Below are positions 1 through 7,295 of a DNA stretch of 7,295 bases, piece after piece (position 1 is the stretch's first letter; every line of letters starts with the position of its first letter). The stretch lies in IMG/VR virus record IMGVR_UViG_2713896781_000013; one strand, written 5' to 3'. Source of the stretch: a virus. Its lineage: Duplodnaviria > Heunggongvirae > Uroviricota > Caudoviricetes. The position numbers and the translations under genes are program-made. The notes under the pieces are model-generated. The model made no database searches. It was not told where the DNA came from and was given only the letters and a program-made list of their open reading frames with translations.

Positions 1-389
1 ACGGGCATACACCCGGCGGCGGACCACCGTGGCCCCCACCAGGCTCTGCAGGTCCTCCGCCATTCCGGTGACCAGACCGAACAGATTGGACACCGTCAGT
101 GACGGGCGGGCACTGCTGCCCTTCCCGTTCATCTCAAAACCGCTGCCGTCAATCGGGTATGCCTGATATTCCCGCCCCTGCCAGGTAACCGCCTCCCCTT
201 TTTCATTCAGCTCATTGCAGAAAAAATACCGCTCNNNNNNNNNNNNNNNNNNNNNNNNNNNNNNNNNNNNNNNNNNNNNNNNNNCCGCTCACCACCCTGT
301 ACCGTCAGGTCGATTTCCCAGAGTACCACCCGCGGTGACTGCTCTGACTTAACCGACTCGTTCAGACTTTCTTCGCGAATATCCTGCAT
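1..389 (-). CDS. L: Minor tail protein L (lambda gpL family); 3' end lies beyond the window start and the reading frame is interrupted by a 50-nt N run (235..284)
   Basis: ATG at 389..387. N-terminus MQDIREESLNESVKSEQSPRVVLWEIDLTVQGGER runs up to the N gap. My translation of the minus strand from 234 to 1 gives ERYFFCNELNEKGEAVTWQGREYQAYPIDGSGFEMNGKGSSARPSLTVSNLFGLVTGMAEDLQSLVGATVVRRRVYAR with no stop. Both parts are colinear with lambda gpL as I recall it (MQDIRQETLNE...VVLWEIDLT...GGERYFFCNEQNEKGEPVTWQGRQYQPYPI...TLTVSNLYGMVTGMAEDMQSLVGGTVVRRKVYAR). The start codon overlaps the stop of M by one base (TGATG). Confidence 0.85.
235..284. other. Run of 50 N (assembly gap or masked bases) inside gene L, flanked by the direct repeat CCGCTC (229..234 and 285..290)
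   Basis: Seen directly in the sequence. Deleting the N run plus one copy of the 6-bp repeat restores a continuous L frame (...TVQGGERYFFCNE...). Confidence 0.9.
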
Positions 390-730
390 CAGTTCACCAC
401 CTGCTCAATCGTACAACTGAAATCACTGTACCTGGCGTTATCTGTGACGCTCCACTCCCGGCACACCACCCTCACCGTCCGGTTATGTTTCGGCGGTCGC
501 CACAAAAAGGCACGGTAACCACCATGCCAGGATAAAAATTCATCCAGCCAGCGCCGGGTTGACTCATCCGTCACCCGGAACACCGCCTGAAACGTCTTCA
601 GTTGAGGATTCAGCCCTGTGGGGCGGCGCTGTTCATAACCGTCACCAAACCGCACCCTCACCACCGACGGCTTCTCACTCACCTGCATCCCTTCACGCGG
701 GACCAGATGCAGCGTTTTTATCTCAGCCAC
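389..730 (-). CDS. M: Minor tail protein M (lambda gpM family)
   Basis: 113-aa ORF MAEIKTLHLVPREGMQVSEKPSVVRVRFGDGYEQRRPTGLNPQLKTF...FLWRPPKHNRTVRVVCREWSV...EQVVN, matching the lambda gpM pattern as recalled (VRFGDGY, LNANLKT, HGG, FLWTPP, EQVVN C-terminus). Start is GTG at 730..728 with GGAGGA (743..738) 7 nt upstream; it overlaps the 3' end of H by 8 nt. Stop TGA at 391..389. Confidence 0.9.
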   Translation of the reverse strand: MAEIKTLHLVPREGMQVSEKPSVVRVRFGDGYEQRRPTGLNPQLKTFQAVFRVTDESTRRWLDEFLSWHGGYRAFLWRPPKHNRTVRVVCREWSVTDNARYSDFSCTIEQVVN

Positions 731-3700
731 TCAGCATTCCTCCGTCACGTCGCATGGACAGCATCACCGCCTGCACCCGCTGGTCAATCAGCTGCACAAG
801 GCTGCCCGCAGCTTCCGGCCCTATCTGTCCGTTAGCCCCGTCATTCTGAATGGCGATGTGGTAGACCGGGGAATACACCAGACCAGCACTGCCGTTCATA
901 CTGCCCACCGCGCGTACGCCCAGCGAGCCATCCGCCGCCCGGGTCAGGGGCATAATGGCTTCAGGTCCGGCTTCCCCCATCAGCCCGGCCCCTTTTGCAA
1001 ACGCAAAGTACGTGGGCGTGTCCACAATGCTGTTGCTGTACGCGCTCAGGTTTGCCGAGGTATACACGCCGCCTTTTGCATTGGCCACCGCACCGCCCAG
1101 CCAGTCACCAATGCTGCCGAGAAATCCTCCTGCACCGGACATACTGTTTGCCGCCGTCTTGATCCCGTTGACAATCGCGGCATTCATAAGAACTTTTGAT
1201 ATTTCCTGCAGCACTGATGAGGCCCAGCTGCGCCATTCCACTTTATTTCCGTTCAGCATCTCCGTGATGTTATTCACCATCCCTGAGATACCCTCCGTCG
1301 CAAGCTGTGCTGCCTGTGAGGCGTAATCGGACGCATTATCCACCCAGTTACTGAATCCCTCCTGCAGCCCTTTCTGCCAGTCCGCACGCTGCGCATCCGA
1401 TTCGGCATAAAAAGTTTCCTGGTCTTTAAGGCGTTCACTCAGATACTGCGCGTTCTGTGCCAGAGCCTGTCTGTAAAAATCCTCACTGATATCCCCGCTC
1501 TGATACTGAGACTGAAGGTCCGCATCCTTCTGGCGGAAGCTGTCGCGGATCTGCTGCAACTCCCGCATGCGTTCTCTGGCTCGCTCCCCCTGCCCGTACC
1601 CCAGCAGTTCAGCATCATTCGACGCACGCGCAGCCGCATTCTCATTCTTCAGTGTCTCTTCCCGGGATCGCAACTGTTCCCGGATTTTTTGCTGGTCAAT
1701 CAGGGTCGCGTTACGCAGCAGTTCCTGCTTCTGCATCTCCGTCAGGGTTTTCAGTTCACCCAGCGCTGTCTGGTATTTCAGCTTCGCCAGCTCTGTATTC
1801 TGCCCCACCAGTGCCAGTTGCTCTTTCTGCTGCTTCAGCAGCCGGGAAAAACTGTCTTCCGCTTTTTCCGTCTCTGATTTTCCACCCCGGGATTTGGGTT
1901 TATTCGCCTCGTTATTGCGCCAGGCTTCCAGGGCATTACTGATATAACGTTGTCTCGCCTCCTGATACGGATCACCCACAAAACCGAGGTCATCCGCCGC
2001 ATACCCCAGTCGGACACGCTCTTTTTCTTCCCCTTTCAGTCTGGACAGGGCCAGCTCACGCTCTGTTTTTGTCAGGGCACTCTGCTGTTTATCATCCAGG
2101 GTGGCCTGCGGCAGCCGTAACGGTACATTCACCAGTCCCTGACGCTGCTGAAGCAGTTCATTCCCCAGCCCCAGCAGACGGTTGAATTCCGTATGCTGAC
2201 CGTTCATAACCAGCATGGACTGGTACACCTTATTCTGCTCTGCCGCCTGCTGACGAATTAACGCCACACGACGGTCTTCCAGCCCGGCAAGCACATCCTG
2301 AATGGACTGCGCTTTTTCCTGCATCTGTGCCAGACGGGACTGCTCAACGGCAAGCTGCTCTGTTGCCTGAGAAAGCCCTTCCGTTACGGTCTTCACCGAT
2401 GTCAGATGGTTTATCATGAATCCGTCACCGGTCGTCCAGCCCGGGTTCGCCAGAACATACTGATATCCTGCGATTTTTTCCTGCAGGGATTTCACCCGAC
2501 TGGCCTGTTCATCAATCAGCCGGTTCTGCTCTGTCAGCGCCGCCCGTGTTCGTCCTTCATTATCTGAGGCTTCAGGCAAAGACATTGACGGCGTTTTATG
2601 CGCGATTTCATCTATCGTCAGTGCATACTGGCGCGCAGACTCCCTGGCCTGCTCCTGATTCTGGTACAGCGTGTACCATGCTGCAGCCCCCAGCATCACC
2701 AGTCCGGGTACGCCACCAACCAGCCCCAGCGCACCGCTCATCAGACGTGAGCCCACCGCCGTTGTACTGTTCAGCGCATTCTGGGCGGCGCTTCTGGCAG
2801 CAATATTTCTGTTCAGGCGTTCCTGTGTGGCCGCCAGACGGGCCTCTGCAGCAATCTGCATCTCCGTCCCGCGGGCTGCCGCCACGGCCTGCTGAGCACG
2901 GTACACGGCTGCCCTTGCCCGCGCCGTGGCAATCTGCGTTCCCCTGAACTGTGCTTCCGCCAGTGCAACTTCATTACGTGCAGCCGTCACAAGTCCTGCC
3001 GTGGCAGACATCGCTCCGGAGGCCATATTGCCAAAGTACCGGGCAACCCCGACGGCAACCAGCGCGCCCACGGCTGTTGCCACATTATCAATCTGTCCGG
3101 CAACACCGTTCAGCATGCCGGAGAGCGTTTTTGTCACCCCGCTGGCCTCATTCGCACCGCCCACCCAGGCCATAAAGGCGTTTTCCACCTTCGTGATACT
3201 ACTGGAAACCGTTTCCGGCATGGCCGCATATTCATCACGTAATATCCCCAGCTGGCTGATTAACGCGGGGACCACTTTATCCGCTGTCAGTTTTCCGTCA
3301 TCCGCCATTGCCTTCAGATCTTTACGGGCCACGCCCATACCCGCAGCCAGTGCACGTACGATCCGGTCACCACTTTCATTGACCGAATTAAACTCCTCAC
3401 CACGCAATACACCCTGCGCCAGCGCCTGACTGAACTGGGTGATCACCGAGCCCGCCTCTGCCGTACTGGCACCGGAGATTTTCAGCCCTGTCGAAATGGC
3501 CTCCGTCACCTTCAGCACATCATCAGCACTGTAACCATATTCACGCATCGAGGCAGCCGAACGGGCAAACAGGGCCGCATTATCCGAAAATGCGGTGCCT
3601 GTCCGCTGGCTGATATCCATCAGCACTTTCTGTGATGACGCAAATTCATCCGATGACTGCGACGCCTGTTTCAGACGGGCATTCACGGAGCTCCATTCAT

Positions 3701-3965
3701 CCGCCAGCGAAATCAGGTGTCCGGTGGCAAAGGCACCGGCAAACGCACCGGTCATTCCGACAGCCGAAGCGCGGATTTCCGTCAACTGGCTGTGCAGCTC
3801 AGCCAGAGCCCGGCGCTGCTCCCTGGCTGCCGCAGCAGCCTGACGTCCGCCATTCTGCAGGGTCCGGTAATATTCACTGCCCATACGGGACGCCCGCTGG
3901 ATCTCCGACTGGAATGACTGTGAATTTGCCGAAATTTTGATAATCAGTTCACGTAACGTCGCCAT
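723..3965 (-). CDS. H: Tail tape measure protein (lambda gpH family), 1080 aa
   Basis: Single 3243-nt ORF. Ala/Gly-rich N-terminal tape-measure-type region, a long Gln/Glu/Arg/Leu-rich coiled-coil-like centre, then a hydrophobic Gly/Ala stretch and a C-terminus (...NDGANGQIGPEAAGS...MRRDGGMLSG) resembling the lambda gpH C-terminus as recalled (NNDGTNGQIGPAAL...MRDGGLFSGGGR). Sits directly downstream of the G/G-T chaperone pair. ATG at 3965..3963 preceded by GGAGAAAGG. Confidence 0.95.
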   Translation of the reverse strand: MATLRELIIKISANSQSFQSEIQRASRMGSEYYRTLQNGGRQAAAAAREQRRALAELHSQLTEIRASAVGMTGAFAGAFATGHLISLADEWSSVNARLKQASQSSDEFASSQKVLMDISQRTGTAFSDNAALFARSAASMREYGYSADDVLKVTEAISTGLKISGASTAEAGSVITQFSQALAQGVLRGEEFNSVNESGDRIVRALAAGMGVARKDLKAMADDGKLTADKVVPALISQLGILRDEYAAMPETVSSSITKVENAFMAWVGGANEASGVTKTLSGMLNGVAGQIDNVATAVGALVAVGVARYFGNMASGAMSATAGLVTAARNEVALAEAQFRGTQIATARARAAVYRAQQAVAAARGTEMQIAAEARLAATQERLNRNIAARSAAQNALNSTTAVGSRLMSGALGLVGGVPGLVMLGAAAWYTLYQNQEQARESARQYALTIDEIAHKTPSMSLPEASDNEGRTRAALTEQNRLIDEQASRVKSLQEKIAGYQYVLANPGWTTGDGFMINHLTSVKTVTEGLSQATEQLAVEQSRLAQMQEKAQSIQDVLAGLEDRRVALIRQQAAEQNKVYQSMLVMNGQHTEFNRLLGLGNELLQQRQGLVNVPLRLPQATLDDKQQSALTKTERELALSRLKGEEKERVRLGYAADDLGFVGDPYQEARQRYISNALEAWRNNEANKPKSRGGKSETEKAEDSFSRLLKQQKEQLALVGQNTELAKLKYQTALGELKTLTEMQKQELLRNATLIDQQKIREQLRSREETLKNENAAARASNDAELLGYGQGERARERMRELQQIRDSFRQKDADLQSQYQSGDISEDFYRQALAQNAQYLSERLKDQETFYAESDAQRADWQKGLQEGFSNWVDNASDYASQAAQLATEGISGMVNNITEMLNGNKVEWRSWASSVLQEISKVLMNAAIVNGIKTAANSMSGAGGFLGSIGDWLGGAVANAKGGVYTSANLSAYSNSIVDTPTYFAFAKGAGLMGEAGPEAIMPLTRAADGSLGVRAVGSMNGSAGLVYSPVYHIAIQNDGANGQIGPEAAGSLVQLIDQRVQAVMLSMRRDGGMLSG

Positions 3966-3981
3966 TCACCTTTCTCCGGGC

Positions 3982-4007
3982 AAAAAAAACCTGCCACAGC
4001 AGGTTTT
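3982..4007 (-). terminator. Hairpin followed by a T8 tract in the T-H intergenic spacer (possible weak intrinsic terminator or RNA-stabilising hairpin)
   Basis: Minus strand reads AAAACCTGC-TGTG-GCAGG-TTTTTTTT: a 5-bp GC-rich stem (3990..3994 with 3999..4003), a 4-nt loop, possible A-U extension, then eight U. It lies between the T stop (4019..4017) and the H start (3965). Confidence 0.3.
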
Positions 4008-4016
4008 CATCATTAT

Positions 4017-4696
4017 TTATGACATTGCTGCAAGGCTCAGCGCGTCTTCCAGCGCCGCAAACGGATCCACCTCCGGCTTATCCTCATCCTCGCCCCAGCA
4101 GAGCATGGCGTCCTTCAGTGCAACATTCATCCCCTGTGCCCCGAAAACCGCTTTCACGATCTGCGCATTACGGATATCCCCGCGCTCATCACCCAGCGGG
4201 GATACCCTGTCGAACTCCATCCACATCATCGCCTCGCTCGCACTCAGGCTGTGCCGCAGTTCGGATAAGGTGCGCCCCAGACGGAGCGCAAGTCGCATCA
4301 GAAAGCGAATTTCCGGGCGGGCTACTTTTTTCTGGCCGACTCTGCATCAGCGATCAGTTCCAGTGCCTGACGCAGCAACCGGGCATGTACCGGACCATAG
4401 ACGGCCAGCACCTGCTCACGGTCGTCCGGAGTGAACACCCGTTGCAGGTCAGTATCACACAGGACATCGCAGAACAGCGTCACATCCGCTTCCAGGTTAC
4501 GGCGGGTTTTCGCCACCACCGACAGGGTATCGTCATCCTCTCCATCACCATTGAGCACTTCCTGCCACAGATACCAGGCCTCTGCCGAAGGCTCCCGCAG
4601 CACCACGCTGACATTTCTCCATTCCGGCACCTTCACCGTTTTATGACGGAACCCCGACAGTCTGGCCAGCGCCAGTGTTTTCAGATCTTTTGCCAT
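4017..4696 (-). CDS. T: Tail assembly chaperone G-T fusion made by a programmed -1 ribosomal frameshift at 4331..4325 (about 226 aa); the T-frame portion is 4017..4328
   Basis: The T-frame ORF (93 aa from its first Met, MRLALRLGRTLSELRHSLSASEAMMWMEF...) is in the -1 frame relative to G and is open across the slippery site (CRVGQKKVARPEIRFLMRL...). The T portion resembles lambda gpT as recalled (LRHRMSAAELTEWMAF). Synteny G, T, H is conserved. Confidence 0.8.
4322..4696 (-). CDS. G: Tail assembly chaperone G (zero-frame product, 124 aa)
   Basis: ORF MAKDLKTLALARLSGFRHKTVKVPEW...ADAESARKK with an acidic DGEDDD stretch, lying between the major tail gene and the tape measure gene. It ends with AGA AAA AAG TAG, so the slippery heptamer sits immediately before the stop. 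ATG at 4696..4694 is 5 nt after the V stop. Confidence 0.85.
   Translation of the reverse strand: MAKDLKTLALARLSGFRHKTVKVPEWRNVSVVLREPSAEAWYLWQEVLNGDGEDDDTLSVVAKTRRNLEADVTLFCDVLCDTDLQRVFTPDDREQVLAVYGPVHARLLRQALELIADAESARKK
4325..4331 (-). other. Programmed -1 frameshift slippery heptamer A AAA AAG, immediately followed by the G stop codon TAG (4324..4322)
   Basis: Plus-strand CTTTTTT at 4325..4331 is A_AAA_AAG on the minus strand, in the G zero frame (AAA 4330..4328, AAG 4327..4325). A -1 slip reads AAA AAA GTA GCC CGC CCG GAA ATT CGC TTT CTG ATG, which joins the T frame. Confidence 0.8.
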
Positions 4697-4701
4697 AAGC
4701 C

Positions 4702-5418
4702 TTATCCGCCCGCACCATTAACCGTTACCGTACACGCATCAGAGGTAATGCTCTGCGGCTGTTCTGCAGAATCCATTACCATGCAGGTATAAGCCCCCTT
4801 ATCACCTGACTGCGCATTGGCTTTACTGAAAGTGTCAGTAGTCTGTCCCTCGACCGGCTGACCATCCTTCTTCCAGGCGTATTTATAAGGCGGCGTTCCC
4901 CCGTTGACACTGACTGACATTGTCAGCAGCGCACCGGTATTCACGGTAAGTGTCTTCTCCGGATTTTTCACAAACGCCAGCGGTACCACATAGGACACCG
5001 GTTTACCCTTCAGGCGAAGTGAAAACGTTGCAGCCACCACGCCGTTGGTACCGGATGACCAGGTGTGCTGACGCACTTCCGCCAGGAACTTAAAGCCCTT
5101 ACCGGACGGAAACTGCACCTTAAACGCATACACCGTGTCATTGTCATAGGCATCACGCAGGGCGTTCTGGGCCTGATTCAGATAAAAATTACCCGACATG
5201 GAAATCTCGGACGACGCCCCCAGACCGTTGATGTTCTCCTGCTCTGTGGAGCAGAGCGTGGTCACATCAATATCCTGTTTCTGCCCGGCGGTGAACTGGA
5301 CTTCCTTGATGGCGCAGTCCAGGCGCAGATATTCCGCCTTATCCATAGTTTCAGCAGTCGCCGGGGCAGATGAAATCATCACCTGCGTCAGCTGTGAGCG
5401 TTCATACAAAGCAGACAT
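4702..5418 (-). CDS. V: Major tail (tube) protein, lambda gpV-like, with a C-terminal Ig-like domain (238 aa)
   Basis: Start assigned to the ATG at 5418..5416 (Met47 of the 284-aa track ORF) because AGGAGG lies at 5428..5423 and the upstream part of the open frame overlaps the previous gene and the intergenic hairpin. Protein MSALYERSQLTQ...VYAFKVQFPSGKG... resembles the lambda gpV core as recalled (AYKIRFPNG). The C-terminal ~85 aa carry Ig-type motifs (PPYKYAWKKDGQPV, GDKGAYTCMV). Position immediately upstream of G/G-T fits the tail tube gene. Confidence 0.85.
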   Translation of the reverse strand: MSALYERSQLTQVMISSAPATAETMDKAEYLRLDCAIKEVQFTAGQKQDIDVTTLCSTEQENINGLGASSEISMSGNFYLNQAQNALRDAYDNDTVYAFKVQFPSGKGFKFLAEVRQHTWSSGTNGVVAATFSLRLKGKPVSYVVPLAFVKNPEKTLTVNTGALLTMSVSVNGGTPPYKYAWKKDGQPVEGQTTDTFSKANAQSGDKGAYTCMVMDSAEQPQSITSDACTVTVNGAGG

Positions 5419-5422
5419 TCTG

Positions 5423-5428
5423 CCTCCT
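5423..5428 (-). promoter_or_regulatory. Shine-Dalgarno AGGAGG for the major tail protein gene
   Basis: Plus-strand CCTCCT at 5423..5428 is AGGAGG on the minus strand, 4 nt upstream of the ATG at 5418. Confidence 0.6.
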
Positions 5429-5434
5429 GATAAT

Positions 5435-5455
5435 AAAAAACCCGCACGCGGCGGG
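5435..5455 (-). terminator. GC-rich hairpin followed by a T6 tract directly upstream of the major tail protein gene (candidate intrinsic terminator or attenuator, or mRNA processing/stability element)
   Basis: Minus strand reads CCCGC-CGCGU-GCGGG then UUUUUUAUUA: stem 5455..5451 with 5445..5441, 5-nt loop, T tract 5440..5435. It sits between the stop of the gpU-like gene (5488..5486) and the V Shine-Dalgarno. Confidence 0.35.
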
Positions 5456-5485
5456 GTATGGGTTTTGTAGAAAAAAAAGAAAAAG

Positions 5486-5830
5486 TCACACCGTGACCTG
5501 AAACTCCAGGGTTGCACGGTAACAGCGGTTTTCCGGAATATAGTCCTGCATTTCACTGACGGATCCCGGGGCCAGCAGCATTATGGCTTCACGGGCGTCC
5601 TGACGTATCTGACGCGCCTGCGTCACAGTCCCGGCATAAACGTCTATCTGCACCGACACTGAGGACTCCGCCTGCCCGCCCATCACGTCCGCCGACACCG
5701 ATGAAATCAGGCTGAAAACCACCCACGGAAGCGCCACCGACGGCCTGCCATCCAGCAGGGGGACCACATACGGGTACACCTGCCCGCCGGCAAGATGCGC
5801 CAGATAAGGATACAAATCCGCCTCCGTCAT
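5486..5830 (-). CDS. Tail terminator protein (lambda gpU-like / DUF3168-like), 114 aa
   Basis: ORF MTEADLYPYLAHLAGGQVYPYVVPLLDGRPSVALPWVVFSL...VQIDVYAG... shares the DGRP-V...P-V and hydrophobic-strand pattern of lambda gpU as recalled (FFDGRPAVFDEADFPAVAVYL...LHIEVFLPA). Lies immediately upstream of the major tail gene. Its ATG (5830..5828) overlaps the preceding gene's TGA as ATGA. Confidence 0.65.
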   Translation of the reverse strand: MTEADLYPYLAHLAGGQVYPYVVPLLDGRPSVALPWVVFSLISSVSADVMGGQAESSVSVQIDVYAGTVTQARQIRQDAREAIMLLAPGSVSEMQDYIPENRCYRATLEFQVTV

Positions 5831-6273
5831 CGTCTCAGTACCTCATCAATGGCCCGGTTCATCCGCGCAATCGCCACCTGAGCTGCCTGTTCACTGCGCA
5901 CATCAAACGCCGGGCGCACAAACGGGTGCGGTGGCATATTCACGGTCCCCATTTCCACAAACCGCCAGTAGAAAGCATTGCGCGGGTTATCCGCCTTCAT
6001 GGTGTTATCGCTGTTACCGGTGTCCGGATTAACACCACGGATATGGACACCGGATTCCATCCCGCCATCGCGGGAGCGCCGGGAAAGGACCACCACATTG
6101 CGGCGCAGTTTTCCCCTGCGTACCGGTGCCCGTGACACCACTTCTTCTTTCAGCACATTCGCACCCGCACGGGTTGCCTCACGCAGCACCCGGTTATTTT
6201 CCGCACCACTCAGAAGCTGCAAATCGCGGCTGATGTCCTCCAGCCCCGAAAAATCCAGCAGGGTTTCGATCAT
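5827..6273 (-). CDS. Tail completion / head-tail joining protein, HK97 gp10 family (lambda gpZ-analogous), 148 aa
   Basis: ORF containing WRFVEMGTVNMPPHPFVRPAF, the motif I associate with the HK97 gp10 family (F-E-x-G-T...HPF-x-RPA). Position is between the head-closure gene and the tail terminator gene. ATGA overlap with the upstream gene at 6273..6270. Confidence 0.7.
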   Translation of the reverse strand: MIETLLDFSGLEDISRDLQLLSGAENNRVLREATRAGANVLKEEVVSRAPVRRGKLRRNVVVLSRRSRDGGMESGVHIRGVNPDTGNSDNTMKADNPRNAFYWRFVEMGTVNMPPHPFVRPAFDVRSEQAAQVAIARMNRAIDEVLRR

Positions 6274-6620
6274 TTTTCCCCTCCCAGCCGACAGAGAATT
6301 TCCAGACGCCCGCCGGTCGCATCCGGCACGGGCAGCCCGACAACGTTCAGGATCCGGTCACGCCATGGACCACTCAGCACATGAAGTCGTGACGCTGCCG
6401 TGATTTCCCGGCCGGACTGACCGCGCACCCAGATGCGGATTTCCGCCTGCGCCATTTCCGCACCGGACTGCATCCGCTCCCGGCTGCTCCTGCCACGGAT
6501 ATCCGCATGAATTTTCCCGCATGACACCCATTCTTCCGTCATTTCTCCGGCAGCATTACGGGTTAACACCGGCTTCAGAACACTTATCATCTGTGTCAGA
6601 CGACCTGCAGATATTGCCAT
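6270..6620 (-). CDS. Head closure / head-tail adaptor protein (SPP1 gp16 and HK97 gp8-like head-tail joining family), 116 aa
   Basis: ORF MAISAGRLTQMISVLKPV...GEMTEEWVSCGKIHADIRGRSSRERMQSGAEMAQAEIRIWVRGQSGREITAASRLHV...RILNVVGLPVPDATGGRLEILCRL shows the family's typical pattern (GRL near the N-terminus, E-x-W, SGRE, I-R-I/W, R-I/L-x-V/I, LE-x-x-C). Strong Shine-Dalgarno GGAGGGAGGA at 6630..6621 directly before the ATG at 6620. Confidence 0.7.
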   Translation of the reverse strand: MAISAGRLTQMISVLKPVLTRNAAGEMTEEWVSCGKIHADIRGRSSRERMQSGAEMAQAEIRIWVRGQSGREITAASRLHVLSGPWRDRILNVVGLPVPDATGGRLEILCRLGGEK

Positions 6621-6630
6621 TCCTCCCTCC
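6621..6630 (-). promoter_or_regulatory. Shine-Dalgarno GGAGGGAGGA for the head closure gene
   Basis: Plus-strand TCCTCCCTCC at 6621..6630, directly between the TGA of the gp6-like gene (6633..6631) and the ATG at 6620. Confidence 0.6.
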
Positions 6631-6957
6631 TCATAACACCGTCGGACAACGCAAATCGTAAATCAGCACGGACACAGAAAACGGCAGCTCCCCCTGAATC
6701 AGTTCTTCCCGCTCCGCAAGATCCGGATTCCGGTACAGCATCCCGGTCAGTCGCATGGCAGCCCCCTTCATCCGGGTTAATGCCTCGCCCGGGATCAGTT
6801 CACCGTCCTCACGAATCACCTTATCCCGGCTGCCCTGAATGTAGGCCAGCAGCACGGCGGTAGCCTGACGAACCTTGTCCATCAGCATGTCATCATCCGC
6901 GTCATGGTCGACACGCAGATGTGCCTTGATCTCTTCCAGTGTCAGTAATGCCGTCAT
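6631..6957 (-). CDS. Head-tail connector protein (HK97 gp6-like, Phage_connect_1-type), 108 aa
   Basis: ORF MTALLTLEEIKAHLRVDHDADDDMLMDKVRQATAVLLAYIQG... carries the N-terminal signature of gp6-like connector proteins (LTLEE-x-KAHLR-x-DHD-x-DD then a helical region). AGGAGG at 6969..6964 is 6 nt upstream of the ATG at 6957. ATGA overlap with the upstream ORF. Confidence 0.75.
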   Translation of the reverse strand: MTALLTLEEIKAHLRVDHDADDDMLMDKVRQATAVLLAYIQGSRDKVIREDGELIPGEALTRMKGAAMRLTGMLYRNPDLAEREELIQGELPFSVSVLIYDLRCPTVL

Positions 6958-7295
6958 TTTCCGCCTCCTGCATCCCGTCCACGTTTGGCAGCCAGGGTCC
7001 AGCCTGATGAATGAGCTTCTCCGGGTTTATCACCGGTCATACTGTTGCAGTGCCACAGCGAGCCCCCCCACGTCACCGTATCACCGGGGTGGTAGGTTTC
7101 ACCGGCTCTGAACACACCGCGGTAGAGCATCACCGGCAGGGAAAATGTTTTTTCCGTACGCTGGCCACTGCTCTGCCGGACCACCACAGTGAACGACCGT
7201 TCGCCGGTCATGCTGACGTCAATATCGGCCACCCCGTCAACCAGGCATTCCCATCCCCGCATCCCGTGCGTTTTTTCATACGCCCGCCAGAGTCC
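6954..7295 (-). CDS. 5'-truncated ORF of unknown function (C-terminal 113 codons visible); possibly the end of a capsid-module gene
   Basis: The frame is open from the window end (7295) down to TGA at 6956..6954. My translation upstream of the track ORF's first Met (7262) gives GLWRAYEKTHG with no stop, so the gene starts outside the window. I do not recognise the sequence ...GETYHPGDTVTWGGSLWHCNSMTGDKPGEAHSSGWTLAAKRGRDAGGGK. It is co-directional and translationally coupled (ATGA) with the gp6-like gene. Confidence 0.5.
   Translation of the reverse strand, partial: GLWRAYEKTHGMRGWECLVDGVADIDVSMTGERSFTVVVRQSSGQRTEKTFSLPVMLYRGVFRAGETYHPGDTVTWGGSLWHCNSMTGDKPGEAHSSGWTLAAKRGRDAGGGK

Follow-up and report, generated by a model that had tools for sequence, protein, structure and literature searches.

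The run of 50 N's that interrupts gene L in the analyzed stretch of DNA (7,295 nucleotides of a Caudoviricetes virus, IMG/VR record IMGVR_UViG_2713896781_000013, hereafter the window) is very probably a placeholder written during scaffolding or contig joining, where two contig ends share an overlap of six bases. Judged from related sequences, gene L is almost certainly intact, with nothing biological hidden at the N run. The initial annotation had favored a scaffold or contig-join artifact with overlapping ends, and this proposal is supported, as a 56-nt closure of the gap reproduces finished genomes, the listed relatives are 56 nt shorter across the site, and no occupied site was found in the databases searched. 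The N run is without biological novelty and is not a disrupted gene.

N run and hexamer repeat in gene L

The N run comprises exactly 50 N's, is the only one within the window, and is directly flanked on both sides by a copy of CCGCTC inside the minus-strand gene L (Table 1). Read on the minus strand, 389..285 translates from the ATG at 389 to MQDIREESLNESVKSEQSPRVVLWEIDLTVQGGER, and 234..1 translates to ERYFFCNELNEKGEAV... (in a longer form, ERYFFCNELNEKGEAVTWQG...). The hexamer reads GAGCGG on the coding strand and gives Glu-Arg (E-R) on each side of the N run. When the end of the left flank was compared with the start of the right flank, CCGCTC was the only match besides a trivial one of 1 nt. 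At a single fixed junction, six matching nucleotides would arise by chance with a probability of about 4^-6 = 2.4e-4 (about 1 in 4096 trials), and the repeat is therefore considered real and not a chance occurrence. The surplus length amounts to 50 + 6 = 56 nt, and since 56 is not a multiple of 3 (56 mod 3 = 2), gene L is out of frame as written. The mechanical open reading frame at 207..389 encodes a 60-aa product that contains 17 X codons, then runs in the wrong frame and ends early at a stop at 207. An exact look-up of this X-containing product gave no match.

With the gap and one repeat copy removed, the resulting 111 residues align end to end and without gaps with lambda gpL (PDB 8iyk chain L, E = 6.2e-56), which reads ...VGGERYFFCNEQNEKGE..., and the stretch GGERYFFCNE spans the junction. 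The Pfam profile PF05100 (Phage_tail_L) matched the closed-up fragment with E = 2.6e-34 and a full-length relative with E = 1.1e-91, the latter covering the whole profile; full-length L has 232 aa in relatives. The initial annotation had described a 50-nt N run in L between CCGCTC repeats, a hexamer encoding ER on either side, a 56-nt surplus that puts L out of frame, and the residue order of lambda gpL after closure. This description is accurate in every detail.

Table 1. Features at the N run and in the adjoining tail genes of the window.
Feature	Positions	Strand	Basis or remark
Left CCGCTC	229..234		probably the last 6 bases of the left contig and the same genomic bases as 285-290; single-copy in the reference
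N run	235..284		probable fixed-length gap placeholder for no real sequence; relatives 56 nt shorter, identity exact after closure
Right CCGCTC	285..290		probably the first 6 bases of the right contig; single-copy in the reference
Gene L, 5' part (minor tail / tail tip protein L), codons 1-35, ends ...GGER	285..389	-	translation, lambda gpL match, PF05100 Phage_tail_L
Gene L, continuation, codons 34-111 (ERYFFCNELNEK...), runs off the left end of the window	1..234	-	identical to the N-terminus of WP_032162127.1
Gene M, intact, encoding a minor tail protein of 113 aa, next gene upstream of L	389..730	-	PF05939, E = 5e-29; annotation of relatives
Gene H, tape measure, 1080 aa, intact	723..3965	-	PF06120, PF20155, PF09718

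All genes at the locus lie on the minus strand. In addition to L, M and H, the annotation of the closest finished genomes places T, G, V, a tail completion gene, an HK97-gp10-like gene, a head closure gene and a head-tail connector gene in the window. By these assignments, the module is recognizable as a standard lambda-type tail module together with HK97-type head-tail joining genes. A canonical -1 slippery heptamer, A AAA AAG, was observed at 4325-4331 (-), near the end of G (4322-4696) and upstream of T (4017-4298). The heptamer sits in the G frame just ahead of the G stop codon, and the T frame (-1) is already open before the heptamer is reached (...GQKKVARPEIRF...). This A_AAA_AAG motif is predicted to be the conserved programmed frameshift of the G/GT tail chaperone; in lambda, the G/GT slippery motif is G_GGA_AAG. 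In databases, T is annotated as a separate CDS of 67-93 aa.

Closing the gap against finished genomes

To close the gap, 56 nt were removed, namely all 50 N's and one of the two CCGCTC copies. After closure, positions 1-442 of the window showed 0 mismatches to LC567839.1, NZ_CP031919.1 and NZ_CP031353.1, all of them finished records. These three base-identical records are those of phage PPompW_EH1846 and of the E. coli O145 strains FWSEC0002 and RM9154-C1. Because there is no mismatch over 1-442, both flanks correspond to one natural haplotype, and there are no foreign bases beside the N's. In the direct alignment, the reference carries a single CCGCTC that is abutted by the left flank. Judged by the finished genomes, the flanks leave no space for any missing sequence.

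The same length difference was seen in a wider set of relatives. The whole window matched 164 phage records and 2442 of 5426 complete E. coli genomes, the best whole-window matches being 99.8% identical and belonging to PPompW prophages, Stx phages and E. coli O145:H28/NM. Among the matches listed (20 phage and 12 E. coli), each covers 1-7295 in two pieces. The closest records span 7239 nt, which equals 7295 - 56, and the spans that were checked in distant relatives with indels elsewhere are a few bases less. When window 1-700 was used as the query, all 30 of the 30 matches listed spanned 644 nt (700 - 56). Additionally, every one of the 10 loci encoding an identical 1080-aa tape measure carries an intact 232-aa L, positioned two genes downstream of the tape measure and directly after M. 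The continuity of L in this isolate is inferred from these relatives.

Outside positions 1-442, the window differs from its closest relatives in a patchy manner. Window 562-623, within gene M, shows 11 substitutions in 62 nt relative to PPompW_EH1846 and RM9154-C1 and is identical to FWSEC0002. Position 443 shows the opposite pattern, matching RM9154-C1 and differing from FWSEC0002. By these comparisons, the window reads as a mosaic of haplotypes found in different finished genomes, which may have arisen either by natural recombination between prophages or as a blended consensus of collapsed repeat copies.

Search for an occupied site

A 60-mer from the right flank was scanned in IMG/VR, GTDB species genomes and metagenomes, and the loci recovered were pooled with other fetched loci. 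The 60-mer was located at 91 loci in IMG/VR, 1 in the GTDB genomes and 69 in metagenomes, none of which contains the N run. In 164 of the 164 other public occurrences, the left flank directly precedes the 60-mer, with 0 insertions; the preceding sequence reads ...CAGAAAAAATA, i.e. ...CA(G/A)AAAAAATA. None of 174 fetched loci contains an N run of at least 5. One exact 60-mer lies at 652-711 of SFGJ01000081.1, a 2.8-kb contig of a metagenome-assembled genome labeled 'Clostridiales bacterium'; it is probably a binning contaminant and not part of a Clostridiales phage.

These data bear on the alternative raised in the initial annotation, a masked insertion with a target-site duplication. An IS or other mobile element inserted in L with a 6-bp duplication, which the assembler failed to cross or which was later masked, would leave the tail tip gene disrupted. 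The 6-bp direct repeat around the N stretch is the sole feature within the sequence that favors such an insertion, and genomes of Shiga-toxin-producing E. coli (STEC) carry numerous IS elements at which short-read assemblies are interrupted. Against this, exact L-gene sequence continues on both sides up to the final base ahead of the N's. A contig that ends at an IS usually includes a few bases of the element terminus. No element termini were seen inside the direct repeats, where the bases adjoining the N's belong to L; the N interior itself is unreadable.

The scans for deviating bases point the same way. Searches of IMG/VR for the left flank and CCGCTC followed by a non-A base, and for a non-A base followed by CCGCTC and the right flank, returned no match. 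With no deviating base beside either hexamer copy in IMG/VR and all 164 of the 164 public occurrences uninterrupted, the same site was not found occupied in any other genome of these sets. A count of exactly 50 N's is moreover a placeholder value and not a measured size. The common E. coli IS elements produce duplications of 3 bp (IS629/IS3 family), 4 bp (IS5), 5 bp (IS2), 8 bp (IS66 family) or 9 bp (IS1, IS10), and to our knowledge a duplication of 6 bp is atypical of them. Beyond the repeat itself, the suggestion of a masked insertion thus gained no support, and we regard a mobile element at this position as extremely unlikely.

The N's could also stand for 50 real bases that were masked. 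The window would then contain a real extra segment of 56 nt, most simply a 56-bp tandem duplication starting from CCGCTC, that frameshifts L. If one copy of a tandem duplication of CCGCTC + 50 nt had been masked, the result would look exactly like the window, and the description of the genome contig collection states that some stretches there are masked as N. However, masking 50 nt inside a tail gene would be unmotivated, and both edges of the mask would need to fall exactly where an unbroken repeat of 6 nt remains. A third CCGCTC was sought 56 nt off on either side and none is present, so that the microhomology that would mediate a duplication is absent: positions 173-178 read CGCCCC, and the nearest similar hexamer, CTGCTC, lies at 339-344. 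Finally, no spacer of 35-65 nt between two CCGCTC copies was found in IMG/VR or the metagenomes, which we count as evidence for the absence of a real insert of that length, and the fetched loci are free of N runs as noted above. A masked segment of this kind has a close to negligible probability. Taken more broadly, it is very unlikely that the N's hide real DNA, whether a small insertion or a 56-bp tandem duplication, which would frameshift L and imply a tail-defective, decaying prophage.

Repeat boundary at the break

The tape measure gene H forms the core of a long repeat common to several prophages of one genome. Among the matches listed, as many as 12 sites match in a single genome, and two genes for the identical 1080-aa tape measure are present in each of the chromosomes CP007133.1 (loci L097 and L098) and CP035768.1 (loci L102 and L103). 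Each pair represents two prophages of one E. coli O145 chromosome with near-identical flanking tail genes.

Three copies (L099, L102 and L103) are base-identical to window 444-7295, about 6.85 kb, and differ from the window at 24-27 sites within 43-443, including positions 217 and 300, which bracket the gap. The divergent stretch of about 400 nt lies in M at its 3' end and in the 5' part of L. The change is abrupt and marks a boundary, of recombination or of the repeat, close to the M/L junction. As the copies are identical over 444-7295 and divergent over 43-443, the gap sits where an exact repeat of about 7 kb turns copy-specific. Short-read assemblies are prone to breaks where repeats become copy-specific. 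Of 38 blocks that carry this module, 16 lie on draft contigs of 2-10 kb, the size class of the window itself. We infer that the break was caused by short reads failing to resolve near-identical prophage copies that diverge here.

An estimate of the assembler k from the distances between contig ends and variable sites was also attempted. The left contig end lies 17 nt past position 217 and the right contig end 15 nt before position 300. The two distances differ and both fall well below any realistic k, so that no simple de Bruijn explanation fits.

The presence of many near-identical copies per genome also leaves room for a gap that is artifactual but joins the wrong pieces. The left piece of 234 nt could stem from one prophage and the right piece of 7 kb from another in the same genome, the two being linked by read pairs unable to distinguish the copies. 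In favor of this, the left piece is only 234 nt long, and against any one of the finished genomes the window is mosaic, with 562-623 matching FWSEC0002 and not RM9154-C1 and position 443 the reverse. On the other side, 1-234 and 285-442 both match the same three finished copies with 0 mismatches, despite about 27 variable sites among copies in this zone, and a single natural haplotype therefore explains both flanks. We consider a chimeric join improbable, and it would likewise be an artifact.

Origin of the gap

On the basis of these observations, a join between two correctly placed contigs is the preferred explanation for the N run. The source would be two draft contigs from a probable Shiga-toxin-producing E. 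coli or a close relative with several lambdoid prophages. Both contigs would have been placed adjacent to each other in the correct order and orientation, with ends sharing just the 6 bases CCGCTC, an overlap probably too short for the joining software to merge. A fixed spacer of 50 N's would have been written instead, leading to the appearance of the 6 shared bases twice and to a 56-nt shift of the L reading frame that exists on paper only. In the real DNA, L most likely continues across the junction (...GGERYFFCNELNEK...).

The site has the properties of a scaffolding gap. The N run has a fixed, conventional length (50 N's), and in finished relatives the two flanks lie side by side and are colinear, with nothing missing between them. 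The duplicated bases are a true overlap of contig ends, CCGCTC being present once in the reference and twice in the window, and the location at a repeat boundary is one that is hard for assemblers. Two counterpoints should be considered. An overlap of 6 nt is smaller than the k-1 of raw de Bruijn contigs, so the explanation requires that some trimming took place, that the assembler was overlap-based or that the join was made by hand. A flanking direct repeat also resembles a target-site duplication.

The length of the spacer was compared with known conventions. The usual NCBI gap of unknown length is 100 N's and not 50, and the default minimum output gap of abyss-scaffold is 50. In the literature, a '50 Ns' convention was found in incidental mentions only. 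The JGI annotation pipeline cuts scaffolds at runs of at least 50 N's, a rule that says nothing on the origin of the gap at 235-284.

With the record as written, gene callers would report a truncated or split L, and tools for prophage completeness might score the tail module as defective. When a fixed N run bordered on each side by a few duplicated bases is recognized as such, false calls of pseudogenes or insertions in draft STEC genomes are averted. The relevance of the site is one of data hygiene only, and such gaps should be closed or flagged before pseudogenes are called or prophage integrity is scored.

Comparison with known systems

The closest parallel is a negative gap that has been padded with a fixed number of N's. 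The placement of gaps between overlapping contigs by scaffolders is documented for SOAPdenovo2, and in ALLPATHS-LG such overlaps appear as gaps of negative size (PMC5368935). The window shares with this system a round N count, contig-end bases duplicated across the gap, exact restoration of the reference after closure and a location in a multi-copy repeat. It differs in that the overlap here is merely 6 nt. With the insertion of an IS in a prophage structural gene, the window shares a short direct repeat around an unresolved stretch within a gene. It differs in that no element sequence is present at the edges and the site is empty in all other sequences examined.

Finally, the module can be compared with that of phage lambda, whose gene order Z-U-V-G-T-H-M-L is also found here. 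Relative to lambda gpL, the L of the window is an ordinary diverged homolog from lambdoid prophages of STEC (PPompW and Stx phages; E. coli O145 and O157), and there is nothing unusual in the protein itself.
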